From the sequence record NZ_CP145666.1: a stretch of 64,000 nt of DNA; one strand, given 5' to 3'. The stretch is from a plasmid. A program made the position numbers. Shown here in pieces: positions 33,001 to 48,000 of this stretch (position 1 is its first letter; each line of letters begins with the position of its first letter).

Positions 33001-36000
33001 ATCTCATTAATGGCAGGTATCGTATTTTTTGGTGCTGTGTATTACCGTGCCGAATATATCAGATTCCTTGGCCCAATCTGGCTGGCAATTTTTATAACGG
33101 AACGCGGTTTACTGTTCACTGGTCTCGGTTTTGTTACCGCGACTGTATGTGTAGTTGTTGCTTTACTCGTTATTTATAATTCATTCTTTACCAAGTCTGG
33201 GAAAAAATCTAATGAAGCAACTAATGGAAACATGGTTGAAGGTGTTTCTCGGGCTGGGTCAAATAATGACAAAGCCAAATATGCAAACCATCGTTTTGAA
33301 GGAAAGCTTGTTTACCACGGTCTCGAAAACTGGAAACACGATCCTAATAACGATAAATCGTATTTAGTCACAATACGTAGTGGTGGGAAAGACCATGAAA
33401 TTTGGGCTGTTGGGCTCAAAAATGCTGTTGAGACTTGTGGAGCACAAGTTGGTGATATTGTTTCAGTCTGGAAAGAGTCTGAAGTAAGAACCGACAAAGC
33501 ACAAGTGTTTGACGAAAGCGGTAAGGTTACAGGGTATCGTACTCTCCTTAACGAAAAACGTCGCGGCATTTGGGTTATGCAAGTACTCGCCGAAAGCTAA
33601 AATATTCTTAATTCAGGCTATAAGCCTTAACTTTTTAATCTTTTAAATATATGAGGTATATTATGACAATTGTCTATGGTAGTAGCATTGAGCCGGGTGG
33701 TATGGAACTGGATGATTACACAATGATTGCAGAGTGTGAAAATTGTGGGAAAGACTGCCGACATCGGATTTATGAAGACTGTGTTGCAGGGGCAATAAAC
33801 CAGAGATTCTCTTATACGTGTAATCACTGCGGTTATCATTCCTGTAACGCTGAAGTATGTGACGTATGCGATAGCATCGAATGCGAAGAACATGCTGGTC
33901 GTTATCAGTCTAATATTTTCTTCGAAATGCATGAGCTCATTGAGCTCATGAAAATAGAGGGAGATATACTGGCAATCAGAGCAAAAATCAATGTAGGCGC
34001 TCACGACTTTGGAGATCTTTCAAAGTTAGATGATTGCCTGCATAGGCTCACCTTTCCAGGTTACTATGAACGGCGAAATACTGATCTCTATAAAGAGATA
34101 TCAGATGCTTCAACCGACATGGCAATCCAAACATGGAAGCGTCTGGAACGCTTGTTATGCTAAACCTCCCTATAAAAACCCAGCGAAAGCTGGGTTTTTT
34201 TCTTTTCTGGATTGACCAACCAAACGTCGTATCATAATCTTATATCGCGGGCATCCCGCTTAACTTCTTTTAACACTCTTTATTTCGGCAACGCGCCATC
34301 CCTGAATGAATAAGTTCATTCGCACGGCTTCCCTACGCCCATAGAATTCGACACACGGTGCATCATGCATCGTGTTTTCTGCGCCGTCGAAAAAGGTGTT
34401 TTTCCTCTTGTTGAGGATACAGTGAGTCCAGCACTCTAACTGGATGCTTCACAAATCTTTCTAATTTTTGTGCCTATAGCACTAAATCATTTTAACTTTT
34501 TTAATTTAAAAATTTATGAGGTATAAACTATGCAATCCAGAGCAAAGGGTATTGTTGCGATAGAACCTAAATATGTGCCTGCATCTAACAATGCAGATTC
34601 ATATATTTATTTCCGTTTGCGCTGTGACATGTCCATTAGCGGCAAGTCTCAGACCGAGTTCTATTCGATAAAAGCATTTGGTAAAGTCGCGGATTTTCTA
34701 CGCGATAATATTCAAATGAATACCGAACTGTATATCGAAGCATTAGCTCGATCATTCCGTTATACAAAACATGGTATTGACCAAATGAGGACTGAGTTTC
34801 ATGTTTTCATGGCTCGAATCATTCAGACTGGTCAATCAATAGATACCCGTGCAAATGAAACTGTAAAGCCACCATCTACATCAACCGTCACTTCGCTATC
34901 CCCTCAAGTAGCGCAAAAACTTAAGGACGATATGAAGTGGCAGAAAATGTCTGATGAAGAGGTAAGAACTGCTTCTGAAAAATGGAGAACAGTATATGCC
35001 GAGCAAAAGCAGCTGCACCCTGGAAAAGAGTCTGTATCACCAGACAACAATAAAAATTCAGTAGAGAAGATACCAGAAGCTTCGCCGAAGCTGGATGCTA
35101 AGAATAGAGCCGTGCAGACATCACGTCCGCAAGCCGCAACCTCTAAGCACCCTGTCAACATGCAAGCCTGGACAAATCTGCCAGCCGATAATTCGACAGC
35201 AGCCGTTATTGTAGCTCGTATGAAACTTAATGAAAAATTAAGCTCCTCCGGGCAAGTAACTTTAACTAACGCATATTCATCAGTTCGCGGTTGATATGAC
35301 TGGTTGCTGATTCCTCAGCAACCTTCTTCTTTTTTAATCTTATAATTTATTTAATTTAATGAGGTATATATGTACTCAAATAAATCACGTAGTTCTGGTT
35401 CATTCTCAAACAACAATAAAGGGAACACCGATATTGTCGTTAAGATAGACAGCATTGCTCGACATATGTTGTCGCTCGAAAAGATGTTTGCATCCGCAGG
35501 TTCCAGTTCACCTCACATCTCATTCGAACGTGAATGCGTTTTTGCAAAACATATTGTCAACAATAATAACTACTTGGCTGACATAGCAGTTAATAATCCA
35601 AAGTCCTTCGAAACAGCATTCCTTCAGCTTGCAAGTAGCGGCCTTACTCTTGACCCGGCGCAGAAGCAGGCTTACCTGGTTCCACGCGATGGTCGTGTCA
35701 TTCTTGACGTGTCCTATATTGGGCTCAGCAGGATGGCCACCGATGAAGGTTTATGCGAAGACATTGTGGCTGAATTAGTTTTTGAAAAGGACTCATTTAA
35801 AACCAATGGTCGTCGTTCCAGCCCAGACCACGAATTTGACCCCTTTGCTTATAAAGGGGGACTCGTTCTCACAAACACCGATCAGGGTGCTTTAGGAGAT
35901 CGAGGCATGTTCAGGGGGGCTTATGTCGACTATTTAATGAAGGATGGACGTCATCTGGTATTTTTCATTGACCTTCAGGATTTAGCTCAATCTCGGGCGA

Positions 36001-45000: not shown

Positions 45001-48000
45001 GAATTGCAAAACAAGTAAATCCTTCTGAGGCTCGTGAGCAGATATTTAATGCTCTATTGCGGTGTAAGCCGGGTATCTTCTAATTCATTTAATTTATCGA
45101 GGTATATATGTTTCATTCTGAAACCGAGGATATCTATGGTTTTGTGTCTGGCGATATGTCATTGCGACCTCATTCAATCGATAGAGATTTGCAGGACTTA
45201 AGGTTACTACTCGCCGATATGGATACCATTAATATTCTGAACGAACGAGGGATAGGAACTCAGAAAACCATCTTTCATGTAACACAAAATGAGTCGAAGG
45301 CATTAATGCTGGTTACTCGTTTAACTTACTGCCAAGGTGGTGGACGATTTACTCACCCTGAATGTGCTCTTCTTGTTGAACAGATAACTGATCTAGGACG
45401 TAAGTTGGGTAATAAACATTTCGATGCGGCGATGAATGAAGCAAAACGCTTTATAGCGAATGAGGCTGACTTCATGAAAGAACAAACTGTCTGGTAGAAA
45501 ATTTCTAAGGAGTCACTCATGTATACTTCAACTACTGCTAAATCAGATCATATTGATAGCTTTAATAACGCACAAAACCGTATGTTGATGAATTACGAAC
45601 GTGATGAGTTTGAACAAGCTCCCGCTGCCGTACTTTATGATGCTGTCGGTGCTGTCGTAAACGATGAATCTGATATTGATATAATTTTTCGCCTTATGGA
45701 TATGGAAGGAGAAATGTTGTTTCTCCGCGCAATGAAAAACCTCGGTTGCCAAGAGAATGTTTTTTATTACGCATCTGAATCTGGTGCGGTGCTGACTGCT
45801 AACGATGCAACGTTGCTTGAATTTGCTTATAACCTGGGCAAACATATCAGCAATGAGTTCTTTACGCGTTTCTTGCGTAATTCTCAGTTAGCCCGTGAAC
45901 TCATCGGTAACATCATTCGTATAGGCAACGATGCCCTTAAATTTCCAGATGACGGCCTGAATACAGTATTTGAATGCTGTGTGATGGAGAATTCATCCTG
46001 GAAGAACCAAGGCCATTTTAAAGATAACTTTGGTCTTTAAAGCATCTAATTCTTTTAATTAGCTAACACAGAAAAACCCAGTCTTCGGACTGGGTTTTTT
46101 TGTATTTGCTGATTTCAAATCATGTAAACAAAACGGATGCACATGAAAATTACTTTTGATTTTTACAGTCAAAACGTTGCCATTTTTGAACTTGTTATTT
46201 TAACCCATATGGCAAACTAATCGTAATGCCGTCCGTATTTCTGATAAGGGAGTTTTATGAAGACACTTAAATGTTCTCATAACAGGGCAATGCTTATGCC
46301 AGCACACAAAATCCCTGCGGTATTAGTTAACGACGACCCTAAGAACATAGTTACTGATGAGCTGTTGCGTAAATATGGAACACGCATGACTCTCGATGAG
46401 GCTTGCTCCGAAATTGGTGTTAAGTCGGATAGTGTAGCCAAACGTATAGGACAGGTCAGATATAGGCATTATGCATTAACTCGCCAACTTGAAAGTGCAA
46501 GGGTCTTTAGTGGAAAAAATAGCTTTTTCTGGACGGAGTCTATCGCAAGAATAATTTCCGAGGGTAATTCCGATGAAATATCAATTTTTAACTAAAATCA
46601 TTATTCCCCTGCTAGTGGGATTTGCTTTTTCTACCTCAGTTCTTGCGGATGAGGGTAACACCCCAACGTCTCAATCCCCTCAGACCACCAGTGACGACCT
46701 CGCTGGTGGTCAGGCATTTCTGAATGGAAAAGAGGAAGGTTGGTTCTGGCGTAAATCGCCACCTGAGCCAGTGAAGAAAAAGCCAGTGAAGTTACCTCCT
46801 CCGCCGACTTTACCGCCTCAAGAAACGCCTAAACAGGTTGCTCAAACACCTATGGAGTCGACTCCAGAACCTGCCGCAACTGAAAAGCCCGGCCCGGCTC
46901 CGTTCACCGTAGCCTGGTTTAATGAAAACATTCAGAAACTACGCAACCAGGCCATCGACAATCCTACCCAAGAAAACGTTAGGGCATATTTTCTGGCCCA
47001 ACGCATTATGCTGGATAAAGCCAGCCGCTTTACTGATATGGCTAGGTTGGTTACTTCTACCGACCCCCTCATAGATGAGAATAGCCGCCGCTCAACCTCA
47101 ACATTTGGGGCAATGGATCAATCGAATGAAGCTGAAAACAATTCGAGAACGGTCATAAAAGACGTAGCGACAAAAGCAGGATTGTTTTTCTTCTTCCGTG
47201 GGGAAAACTGCTCCATATGCGTAAAGCAAGCTTCTGTTATGAATACGTTTAGTTTCATGACAGACATGAAGGTCATCCCAATTTCACTTGATGGTAAACC
47301 TCTTCCAGGGAATATTTACCCGGACTGGAGGCCTGATTCTGGCCAGGCATCAAAGCTCCAAATATCAAACGCACCTGCGATAGCTCTGGCAATCCCGCCA
47401 TCTACAACACGCATTGTCTCATTTGGGCCTATCAGTGCAGACCAGTTAATTTCAAGAACAGTCCTTATTGCCCACGATGCAGGGATCATTTCTGACCAGC
47501 AATATAAGAGCACCTTGCCATATAACGATACCGGCTATATCGACTCAAACATTCTGAATGACATGCCTAAAGACCTAACTCAACAACCTGATGAGTTTAT
47601 CAAATATATACAAGCTAAAGCTGGCTACGGTTCGACACCTAACCCAAATGCTAATAACCCGGGGGAAAAATGAAGATTTCGCGCAACTATAATATAAAGA
47701 ATGTATTCCGTAGAAACATTCTTGCAATTTCTATCTGCCTCTCCGGGTTGACAGCTTTTCAATGCGAGGCCACCAGCATTAGTACTCAGCTAGACAGTAT
47801 GTTCGGCTCTATGTCGAATGTTACAGCTCCCGGTGATTATCAGAGCGTTACACGTGATGGATATACCGGTGGCGGATTTGTTCTACGTAATAAGCTCCGT
47901 ACATTGACACCTATTAGTATTAGTCTCCCTTCTGCGTCGGGAGGATGTGGAGGGATAGACCTTTTCGGCGGGTCATTCTCGTTCATCAACGCTGATCAGT

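Follow-up and report, generated by a model that had tools for sequence, protein, structure and literature searches.

In IncC plasmids the hde operon deals with host defences: vcrx089/090 work against type I restriction, and ssb-bet-exo mend the breaks that CRISPR-Cas makes at entry (PMC7498323). Its genes form one transcript by reverse transcription PCR, and an RNA structure is predicted to mask the vcrx089 ribosome-binding site (PMC7498323). Of the SetCD-dependent promoters, the SXT operon has the strongest at its start, which diverges from s063 (PMC4344509); bet and exo in this operon are "highly transcribed" and held down by "a strong translational attenuator" (PMC4542580). In Rts1, loss of bet, exo or the s063 homologue results in ~100-fold lower transfer (PMC10838148). 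Both SetCD/AcaCD control and the evasion of restriction and CRISPR are published for the SXT/IncC modules (PMC7498323, PMC4344509). Here we describe a gene cluster of this kind in a 64,000-nt stretch of plasmid DNA (record NZ_CP145666.1; the window, whose positions are used throughout), together with the non-coding sequences that punctuate it: A+U-rich leaders with a conserved octamer, and two paralogous elements of ~270 nt.

The gene module is of a kind already known. The octamer leaders and the ~270-nt elements appear undescribed in Rfam and in the literature searched, and comparison between lineages supports both well as conserved, putatively functional non-coding features. On balance, we favour a reading in which they belong to RNA-level modules controlling translation and mRNA stability within three transcription units.

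Results

The cluster is a backbone module homologous to hde and s089

The window differs from plasmid unnamed1 of E. coli ET76 (NZ_CP101011, 235,624 bp) at 4 of 64,000 positions and represents a 235-kb MOBH plasmid type, kin to the IncT plasmid Rts1. By the annotation of NZ_CP101011 the neighbourhood follows the SXT/R391-IncC-IncT (MOBH12) plan: mobH, traD, traLEKBV, dsbC, traC, trhF, traW, traU, a divergent AcaB-family regulator and the cluster are followed by traF, traH, traG, traN, an FlhC-family activator and mobI. The cluster encodes an SSB, a RecT/Bet annealing protein and a YqaJ/lambda-Exo exonuclease, as well as a CbbQ/MoxR ATPase with DUF3150 and VWA partners; in this annotation and in relatives it lies in an SXT/IncC-type transfer region, beside divergent acaB/s063 and 5' of traF. 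It is a homologue of the IncC hde operon (vcrx087-094) and of the SXT s089 operon.

With hde and with s089-s073 of SXT/R391 the cluster shares its place in the MOBH12 transfer region and its protein families, along with intercistronic hairpins and repeated non-coding leaders heading gene blocks. The hde proteins, however, are ~35% identical to those of the window (34.7% for the MoxR ATPase, by tblastn), and the ATPase is grouped with ssb-bet-exo in IncC but with DUF3150-VWA in the window. The leaders differ as well: those of IncC/SXT are GC-rich and their pre-ATG bases pair upstream, as an attenuator that sequesters the Shine-Dalgarno sequence (SD), whereas those of the window are ~90% A+U, unstructured and built of octamer repeats.

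The placement traU/acaB/cluster/traF and the gene order are kept in at least five lineages, with protein identity of only 46-60%. Syntenic clusters were found on a K. oxytoca plasmid (MoxR 59% identical), on Rts1, the IncT prototype, on Proteus/Providencia and Moellerella plasmids, in a Kluyvera and a Morganella genome, and in metagenomic contigs. The original prediction had taken the region for an accessory array of about 17 self-contained, modularly acquired cassettes, which might occur in different orders in related elements. This does not hold: the G+C content of the cluster (0.40-0.45) is that of the backbone, place and order are constant in the lineages sharing the traU/acaB-traF placement, and the type of SD is conserved gene by gene. 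IncC plasmids have the same protein families in another block order. Since gene order is fixed across diverged lineages, this is no array of separately acquired cassettes, and the region is a conserved backbone module for host-defence evasion and recombination on an IncT-related MOBH plasmid. The accompanying guess of anti-defence or establishment functions was reasonable and fits the published IncC and Rts1 homologues (PMC7498323, PMC10838148).

Cassettes of integron type were considered and rejected. The cluster has only short perfect stems with T-runs, where an attC site would be an imperfect inverted repeat of 57-141 nt; there is no integrase in or beside it, the sole intI1 of the plasmid lying ~120 kb off in the resistance region, and the gene order is fixed.

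A leader peculiar to the cluster precedes most of its genes

A search of the window for AATGAGGTATAT with up to two mismatches gave 11 hits, seven of which (33650, 34515, 35358, 38889, 40028, 41449 and 45096) lie on the + strand with 0-3 nt between the hit and the ATG of a genuine gene, exactly the seven genes for which the motif had been proposed. All five + strand copies of GAGGTATAT in the window are in the cluster; over the whole 235,624-bp plasmid there is no + strand copy outside it, and the - strand has three, including one in front of a parM-like gene. The variant AGGTGATCATTATG, noted earlier for the genes at 36984 and 43438, is an exact 14-mer at 36973 and 43427. The GGAGTCT type does precede the genes at 38465, 44574, 44823 and 45519; its hexamer GGAGTC is common (12 + strand copies in the window) and therefore merely an ordinary SD. 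AGGUGAUC is an SD that pairs with GAUCACCU of the 16S rRNA 3' end. Across lineages the SD type is gene-specific: GGTGA for exo, GGAGTC for x and GAGGTA for many others.

When the 236 SD-ATG sites of the whole plasmid (open reading frames (ORFs) of at least 50 codons) are ranked by the A+T content upstream of the SD, cluster genes occupy ranks 1-5 and 10 of the top 20. Between -35 and -13, the 11 motif genes have 89% A+T, compared with 61% in a set of 24 tra genes and 126 further genes of the backbone (Mann-Whitney p = 1e-7). The initiation regions of the motif genes are also less structured than those of other plasmid genes (-5.0 versus -7.9 kcal/mol, p = 0.014), their leaders having a minimum free energy of about -5 kcal/mol over 60 nt. 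A generic SD context of the plasmid, which the original prediction had named as the explanation that would undo it, is ruled out on the plasmid-wide scale, the motif being absent from ~150 other genes.

Further upstream, most cluster starts in four lineages are preceded by the octamer core AAAT[A/C/T]TAT, often in tandem. For 65 cluster genes, the stretch from -50 to -10 yielded 60 octamers in total, where dinucleotide-preserving shuffles of the same leaders gave 3.9 +/- 1.9, with a maximum of 10 in 1000; plain A+T richness is ruled out as the cause by these shuffles. Leaders of tra genes hold one copy in 45. Nearly all copies are 17-48 nt from the start codon, and within the clusters all 33 copies of TTAAAT[ACT]TAT are on the coding strand, the opposite one having none. 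The leader words are CTATTAAATATATAAAYTTATC in Rts1, TAAATATATAAATTTAT in the K. oxytoca plasmid, TTTTAAATCTATTAAT in the Proteus/Providencia plasmids and TTTAAATCTAT, TCTAAATTTAT and TAATTTAAT in the window. In Rts1 the words run in tandem with a period of 9 (TCTATTAAA, up to 6.6 copies), and also of 8 or 10; the window's leaders are more degenerate. Among its small ORFs, the A+U-rich leader (TTTAATTTATCGAGGTATAT) is present at 45108 alone, apart from that of s1 (43438).

Orthologous leaders can be aligned gene by gene across lineages, and each looks to be under long-term purifying selection rather than a product of recent linker copying. By sequence, the window's AATGAGGTATAT is the SD-proximal end of this family-wide feature. 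That a related octamer is conserved in diverged relatives also bears out the earlier proposal of a shared cis-element, probably post-transcriptional in action.

The motif also touches on annotation. Mechanical ORF lists over-extend the proteins at 33651, 38890 and 40029 by MRYI/MRYV, because the motif ATGAGGTAT(A/G)T(N)ATG holds an in-frame ATG 12 nt 5' of the true start; the NCBI annotation pipeline (PGAP) starts at the downstream ATG. In pPM33-NDM_252k (locus L010) the annotated VWA start, TTG at 15074, looks too far 3': GTGAGGTAAGT-ATGGGTATTTAT at 14795 matches the window's VWA start at 41461 and has an octamer leader. Outside the cluster, traN has the same extended SD AAGGTGATCA (a 10-mer of AGGTGATCATTATG, 53067-53083) as exo and the 43438 ORF. 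The parM-like gene mentioned above lies outside the window (L004 ~36786-36800, record position 136786, minus strand) and carries TTTTAATGAGGTATATACCATG ~48 nt inside its annotated start; its true start is probably this internal ATG, with a cluster-type ribosome-binding site.

Two paralogous elements with a predicted promoter, leader fold and terminator

The two long gaps of the cluster, 34164-34529 before ssb and 38094-38464 before x, are paralogous and hold the ~270-nt elements, which span 34195-34466 and 38122-38397 when part of the preceding terminator is included. There are only these two copies in the whole plasmid, and every relative has exactly two, at the same two places. They lack annotation in 127 PLSDB records, and Rfam gave no family at gathering thresholds (terminator-like noise only at E <=5).

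Each copy follows directly on a strong terminator, T1. Alignment of 16 copies shows TTGACC and T-A-n-n-n-T to be invariant, with a 17-nt spacer of variable sequence between them; this is a sigma-70 promoter signature, with a predicted start near a conserved GCGG...CCGC hairpin. The fold of the presumed leader RNA is borne out by covariation: P1 changes from GC to AU pairs, P3 exists in four different complementary versions, and P5 and P6 covary as well, whereas P2 is absent from copy a of the window. T2, an intrinsic terminator of -14 to -20 kcal/mol with 5-7 U, lies ~110-150 nt after the promoter, shows compensatory changes and is enclosed by AAUUCGA/GUCGAA. A long-range helix between the 5' box CUUAAAACACCUU and AAGGUGUUUU, directly 3' of T2, is found in 16/16 copies with matching length and wobble changes, and is recovered by single-sequence folding of both window copies. 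Conservation extends past T2.

No small ORF or leader peptide is conserved in the 16 copies, the longest ORFs varying in frame, strand and length. Databases nevertheless place "hypothetical proteins" on copy a in three relatives: 6475-6840 (+) in Rts1 (L009), 5063-5224 (-) in L012 and 4995-5177 (-) in L013. As no ORF is conserved across the 16 copies, these calls are doubtful and probably spurious.

Two further roles for the elements were tried and rejected. The CGTCGAAAAAGGTGTTTT box is no general AcaCD-like activator site, since plasmid-wide it is present only in the two elements; and the leader RNA (P_a/P_b to T2) is no antisense to initiation regions, its duplex energies matching those of shuffled targets (mean z = -0.3 and -0.8). 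In a pattern scan of metagenomes most hits were due to chance, and nhmmer confirmed only seven loci, which belong to the family already described; one of them (L039) was examined and has the same gene context.

The element was not found in IncC by nhmmer. IncC (L008) has repeated leaders of its own, at 11802-11922 and 16637-16757 and also at 10760 and 20470, which head the ATPase, DUF3150 and a later block and are probably the rptI repeats of PMC7498323; they include a hairpin, GTTCTC..GAGAGC with AAGTGC after it, that is similar to the P5/AAGTGC portion of the IncT-type element. Since block boundaries coincide with repeated non-coding leaders in both families, such leaders may be a route of block reshuffling. 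At most IncC cluster genes, for example at 10878-10914 and 11905-11943, the bases from SD to ATG complement a G+C-rich segment 15-25 nt 5' (GGTGTTGC...GCAACACC-ATG is one case); the pairing would enclose the SD in a hairpin, a design opposite to that of the window's leaders.

Relatives carry another box, CTGTGGCCGGACTTCG, as two direct repeats 5' of the first cluster gene, between acaB and g1 (L007 ~4640-4760, L009 ~5560-5680, L010 ~5990-6080). It is absent from the window's lineage, where the acaB-g1 gap has a deletion and a different sequence.

Hairpins and putative transcription units

Terminator-like hairpins stand at 34174, 35302, 36932, 38099, 39980, 41401 and 43945, with a last one at 46072-46101; a scan of 30-49.9 kb saw 31 hairpins where 16.7 are expected. 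Those of the cluster are perfect stems of 18-28 nt followed by T-runs, retained at orthologous positions across lineages, and the recT-exo module is conserved in 7 lineages. Six (34174, 38099, 39980, 41401, 43945 and 46072) are strong canonical terminators. The claim that nearly every gene has its own terminator therefore stands in part: all eight hairpin sites are present, but the T-runs at 35302 and 36932 are interrupted, and between the small ORFs of 43994-46040, packed tightly with gaps of 10-33 nt, there is none.

Because two strong terminators each precede a conserved sigma-70 promoter, we prefer three transcription units (Table 1) to 17 autonomous ones, as had been suggested. Unit 1 would comprise g1 and zn (32989-34163), probably transcribed from an activator-dependent promoter as in SXT and IncC; unit 2 would run from P_a through ssb, recT and exo; and unit 3 would reach from P_b through x, moxR, DUF3150 and VWA to the small ORFs, ending at the 46072 terminator. 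T1a and T1b would insulate the units from each other.

Table 1 Features of the cluster and its flank (window coordinates).
Feature	Position	Strand	Details
AcaB-family regulator (SXT s063 / Rts1 orf218 homologue)	31805-32551	-	Divergent from cluster; Pfam AcaB E = 1.8e-5; PGAP in NZ_CP101011
g1, first cluster gene	32989-33600	+	Leader TTCTAAATTTAT-AGGTGATCT-ATG
A+U-rich leader of zn	33618-33662	+	Hairpin 33615-33627, TTAACTTT, TTTTAAATATAT, SD GAGGTATATT
zn	33663-34163	+	166-aa Cys/His-rich protein, narrow family
T1a	34174-34201	+	Strong intrinsic terminator, putative end of unit 1
Element copy a	34212-34466	+	-35 TTGACC 34212-34217; -10 TAATCT 34235-34240; predicted start ~34247
Copy a, helices		+	P1 34247-34259; P3 34304-34321; P5 34403-34417; P6 34427-34444
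Copy a, other parts		+	5' box 34268-34281; terminator T2a 34354-34380; box CGTCGAAAAAGGTGTTTT 34385-34402
ssb leader	5' of 34530	+	AAAAATTTAT then GAGGTATAAACT
ssb	34530-35294	+	Atypical, 254 aa; Pfam SSB E = 7.5e-5, below curated cut-off
ssb-recT module	35302-35369	+	Hairpin GGTTGCTGA..TCAGCAACC, A+U-rich leader, AATGAGGTATAT
recT	35370-36926	+	recT/bet-type single-strand annealing protein; Pfam RecT E = 2e-21
recT-exo module	36932-36983	+	Hairpin CCGGCAG..CTGCCGG, TTTAACTTTCTAAATTTAT, extended SD AAGGTGATCATT
exo	36984-38093	+	YqaJ / lambda-Exo-type exonuclease; Pfam YqaJ E = 2e-19
T1b	38099-38128	+	Strong intrinsic terminator, putative end of unit 2
Element copy b	38131-38397	+	-35 TTGACC 38131-38136; -10 TATCTT 38154-38159; predicted start ~38166
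Copy b, helices		+	P1 38166-38179; P3 38237-38254; P5 38341-38357; P6 38368-38386
Copy b, other parts		+	5' box 38198-38211; terminator T2b 38287-38319; conserved box 38323-38340
x	38465-38842	+	125-aa protein; SD GGAGTC, kept in all lineages
A+U-rich leader of moxR	38857-38901	+	TTAATTT repeats, TTTAAATCTAT, AATGAGGTATATC
moxR	38902-39981	+	MoxR/CbbQ-type AAA+ ATPase (vcrx089-like); Pfam AAA_5 E = 5e-20
moxR-DUF3150 module	39980-40040	+	Terminator AAAACCCCGCTTGGGGTTTTTT, TTTTAAATCAA repeats, AATGAGGTATGTC
DUF3150 protein	40041-41396	+	Pfam E = 4e-60
DUF3150-VWA module	41401-41460	+	Terminator AAAAGGCCC..GGGCCTTTTTT, TTCTAATTAATCTATTTAAATTTAT, TGTGAGGTATAT
VWA/CobT-like protein	41461-43374	+	VWA E = 4e-9
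A+U-rich leader of s1	43393-43437	+	TTTCTAAATTAATTTAATTTATTTTA then AAGGTGATCATT
Eight small ORFs	43438-46040	+	Listed starts 43438, 43994, 44313, 44574, 44823, 45108, 45519
Internal terminator among small ORFs	43945-43968	+
Closing terminator	46072-46101	+	Putative end of unit 3, before the orf239-traF operon

Gene products and distribution

Eleven other ORFs of the cluster gave nothing informative in Pfam, PHROGs, PADLOC or NCBIfam. Among the small proteins, only that of the 73-aa ORF matches PHROG families, which have no function assigned there. The g1 protein has membrane segments at its N-terminus and a C-terminal domain weakly like the MobP1 relaxase C-terminus, its only match (NCBIfam E = 4.7e-5, far below cut-off). 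The zn protein has no known domain in the four databases, and its AlphaFold2 model (pLDDT 50, from an alignment of 4 sequences) is unusable.

The 12.6-kb cluster region was found in 79 PLSDB plasmids, mostly at >=99% identity, the majority from Citrobacter (53) and others from Klebsiella, Enterobacter and E. coli. One plasmid of this type, pCAV1857-208, is typed as MOBH, with Col(VCM04) only and no Inc replicon. In Rts1 the VWA gene (L009 15403-16631) is interrupted by IS2, and IS3-family elements (IS911, ISSen4) break the cluster in several window-type PLSDB plasmids, so maintenance does not require the whole of the module.

Discussion

We propose that the cluster is expressed as three transcription units subdivided by repeated RNA modules. 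Each module would consist of a GC hairpin with T-run, serving as partial terminator or 3' stabiliser, a nearly unstructured leader of ~90% A+U with (U)UAAAUNUAU-type repeats, and a strong SD (GAGGUA or AGGUGAUC) at optimal spacing to the start codon. Transcripts presumably read through the hairpins, as their IncC and SXT counterparts suggest, and the modules would uncouple the cistrons and set their translation, probably segment stability too. Since the leaders are strand-locked, SD-adjacent and repeated out of phase with the helix, they would act on RNA (or as promoters) and not as a duplex-protein site. We read them as stretches of single-stranded A+U on which translation can initiate and which in addition contain a specific word that is recognised: ribosome standby or enhancer sites, probably operators as well, which may give each product a set, high and co-ordinately controllable translation. 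They also resemble the TAACTGA heptamers in Beggiatoaceae and cyanobacteria, short strand-specific direct repeats between promoter/terminator and many starts, for which a post-transcriptional network has been proposed (PMC4679880); word, taxon and scale are different there, a whole genome against one 13-kb plasmid module.

In the ~270-nt elements, T2 and the leader fold would form a control point, by attenuation or antitermination. With their host-type promoters, units 2 and 3 would fire once the plasmid is double-stranded in the recipient, ahead of the plasmid's activators. Early expression in the recipient is likewise expected of the Frpo/ssi leading regions of F and ColIb-P9, which also have repeated ~300-nt elements before ssb and anti-defence genes (psiB, ardA). 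In Frpo/ssi the transferred single strand folds into a long, imperfect hairpin in which the promoter hexamers are formed. The window differs in this respect: in single-strand folds with DNA parameters the promoter region of both copies is unpaired and the hexamers lie outside hairpins, so that these look like ordinary duplex promoters. Nor is the cluster beside mobI, where the origin of transfer of relatives lies.

Several observations weigh against the three-unit, RNA-level reading. Exact octamers are fewest in the window's own lineage, the most degenerate one (6, against 13-21 in relatives). A generic S1 or standby enhancer needs just A+U richness and leaves unexplained an octamer kept at more than ten sites; such long retention of one word therefore suggests that a sequence-specific partner exists. 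The model also has to assume that five canonical-looking terminators (39980, 41401, 43945, T2a and T2b) are read through. Finally, the homologous IncC/SXT operon does the opposite, with SD-sequestering GC hairpins and a translational attenuator, so that the leaders here may be either enhancers or repressor sites.

The partner could be a repressor. On this account, which we regard as possible if rather unlikely, the A+U-rich repeats are operators for an element-encoded protein that binds single-stranded nucleic acid, most plausibly the atypical SSB of the cluster. From a nucleus at the adjacent hairpin, free SSB would extend across the UUAAAU repeats and ribosome-binding site, as gp32 of T4 does with its mRNA, and turn the regulon off. 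Single-stranded DNA (ssDNA) from conjugative entry or break repair would titrate it and free translation; such a switch would suit a module that is needed only in the presence of ssDNA or breaks. The closest precedent would be the leader of T4 gene 32: there too, a structured nucleation element is followed by >40 nt of unstructured UUAAA/UAAA repeats that include the ribosome-binding site, amid a similar set of ssDNA-binding and recombination genes, and M13 gp5 on gene II mRNA is a second case (PMC535899). Leaders in the window are similarly 89% A+T, with UUAAAU octamers 17-48 nt before the starts and most of them after a hairpin. The coding-strand-only repeats that abut the SD, their period of 8-9 nt, out of phase with the DNA helix, and the conservation of a specific word, which implies a specific partner, all agree with an operator, as does the strong translational attenuator 5' of bet in the highly transcribed SXT homologues (PMC4542580). 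Differences from gene 32 are nonetheless clear, since the leader precedes at least ten different genes, not one, and upstream of it a simple hairpin with T-run takes the place of the pseudoknot. Garriss reportedly found in 2013 that Ssb limits Bet/Exo-driven hybrid formation. Tetrameric SSBs with the oligonucleotide/oligosaccharide-binding (OB) fold are not known to read sequence, the repeats also precede genes unrelated to ssDNA handling (moxR, DUF3150, VWA and g1), and the attenuators of SXT and IncC are GC hairpins, not A+U repeats.

Joined to a role for the new leader RNA as attenuator or processive antiterminator, a regulon-wide (U)UAAAUNUAU operator read in gp32 fashion by the element's own single-strand-binding protein makes a bolder proposal, and an unlikely one. 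If it were true, the whole set of anti-defence and recombination genes would undergo a burst of translation limited to periods with ssDNA, at entry or during break repair, and the two-copy leader RNA, with T2 spanned by the long-range helix, would license read-through of the intercistronic terminators.

Alternatively, the terminators may be real, and RNA polymerase may pass them through processive antitermination that originates at the two leader elements, the A+U-rich blocks then being just good ribosome-binding sites; we find this distinctly improbable. It could work through a cis-acting leader RNA like HK022 put or EAR, or through a unit-1 factor, for example zn, that would modify RNA polymerase at P_a and P_b. 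Lambda Q acts at PR', where unmodified transcripts end at tR' after 194 nt, and the arrangement in the window recalls lambda PR'-tR', HK022 put, EAR and the pLS20-type conAn in its constitutive-looking promoter, its short structured transcript to a terminator and the many terminators of the operon. The conserved promoter is followed by the conserved strong T2, conservation and a helix spanning T2 imply that read-through transcripts matter, and more strong terminators lie downstream in the same transcription unit; for the conjugation operons of Gram-positive elements, control of this kind is established (PMC8191782, PMC8955417). On the other hand, the elements show no sequence or Rfam similarity to known antitermination RNAs, no N-, Q- or NusG/RfaH-like protein is recognisable among the Pfam, PHROG and NCBIfam matches, the zn model is of low confidence, and the specific enrichment of the octamer would be left unexplained.

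It is very unlikely, in our view, that each A+U-rich block is a promoter, of an unusual host sigma-70 type or for a plasmid factor, and that the genes are autonomous cassettes resembling phage early genes. Several genes do stand after a canonical terminator and so need a source of transcription, the motif is orientation-locked 5' of each gene, and in relatives it holds TATAAAT-like -10 words. But IncC and SXT homologues are polycistronic (PMC7498323), and a scan of the short leaders gave no + strand site of >=9/12, bar one overlapping the VWA start codon. There is no conserved -35 or TG extension; the motif touches the SD in several genes, where a start ~7 nt on would fall within or past it; copy number and distance to the start codon (17-48 nt) vary; and the textbook TTGACC-17-TAnnnT is conserved at the two leader elements only.

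H-NS prefers TpA-rich A+T tracts. Action of the repeats on DNA or on mRNA decay can hardly be credited all the same, whether as H-NS-like nucleation, as RNase E sites cutting the polycistronic RNA into hairpin-protected monocistronic pieces, or as micro-homologies for Bet/Exo annealing: AAAU(U) beside 3' hairpins does fit the loose taste of RNase E for A/U-rich single strands, and Bet/Exo use IncC intergenic repeats down to 7 bp, with a co-evolution of repeats and system suggested by the authors (PMC7498323), but the 33:0 strand bias and the fixed SD-adjacent position are unexpected for H-NS or annealing sites, annealing at these repeats would delete the module's own genes, and RNase E requires no particular octamer.

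IncT-related MOBH plasmids carry multiple resistance genes. In PLSDB the window type accounts for 79 records and the whole family for ~127, the sources being Enterobacterales from clinics and wastewater. The homologous module of IncC/SXT enables survival of restriction and CRISPR at entry, and the existing account of how such a module is quickly switched on and then silenced stops at "a strong translational attenuator". In the databases, at least three "hypothetical proteins" fall on the ~270-nt non-coding element, which is itself a candidate for a new family of cis-regulatory RNA. The octamer leader, conserved and easily mutated, and the defined promoter-leader-terminator element may offer handles on the post-transcriptional control of establishment genes.

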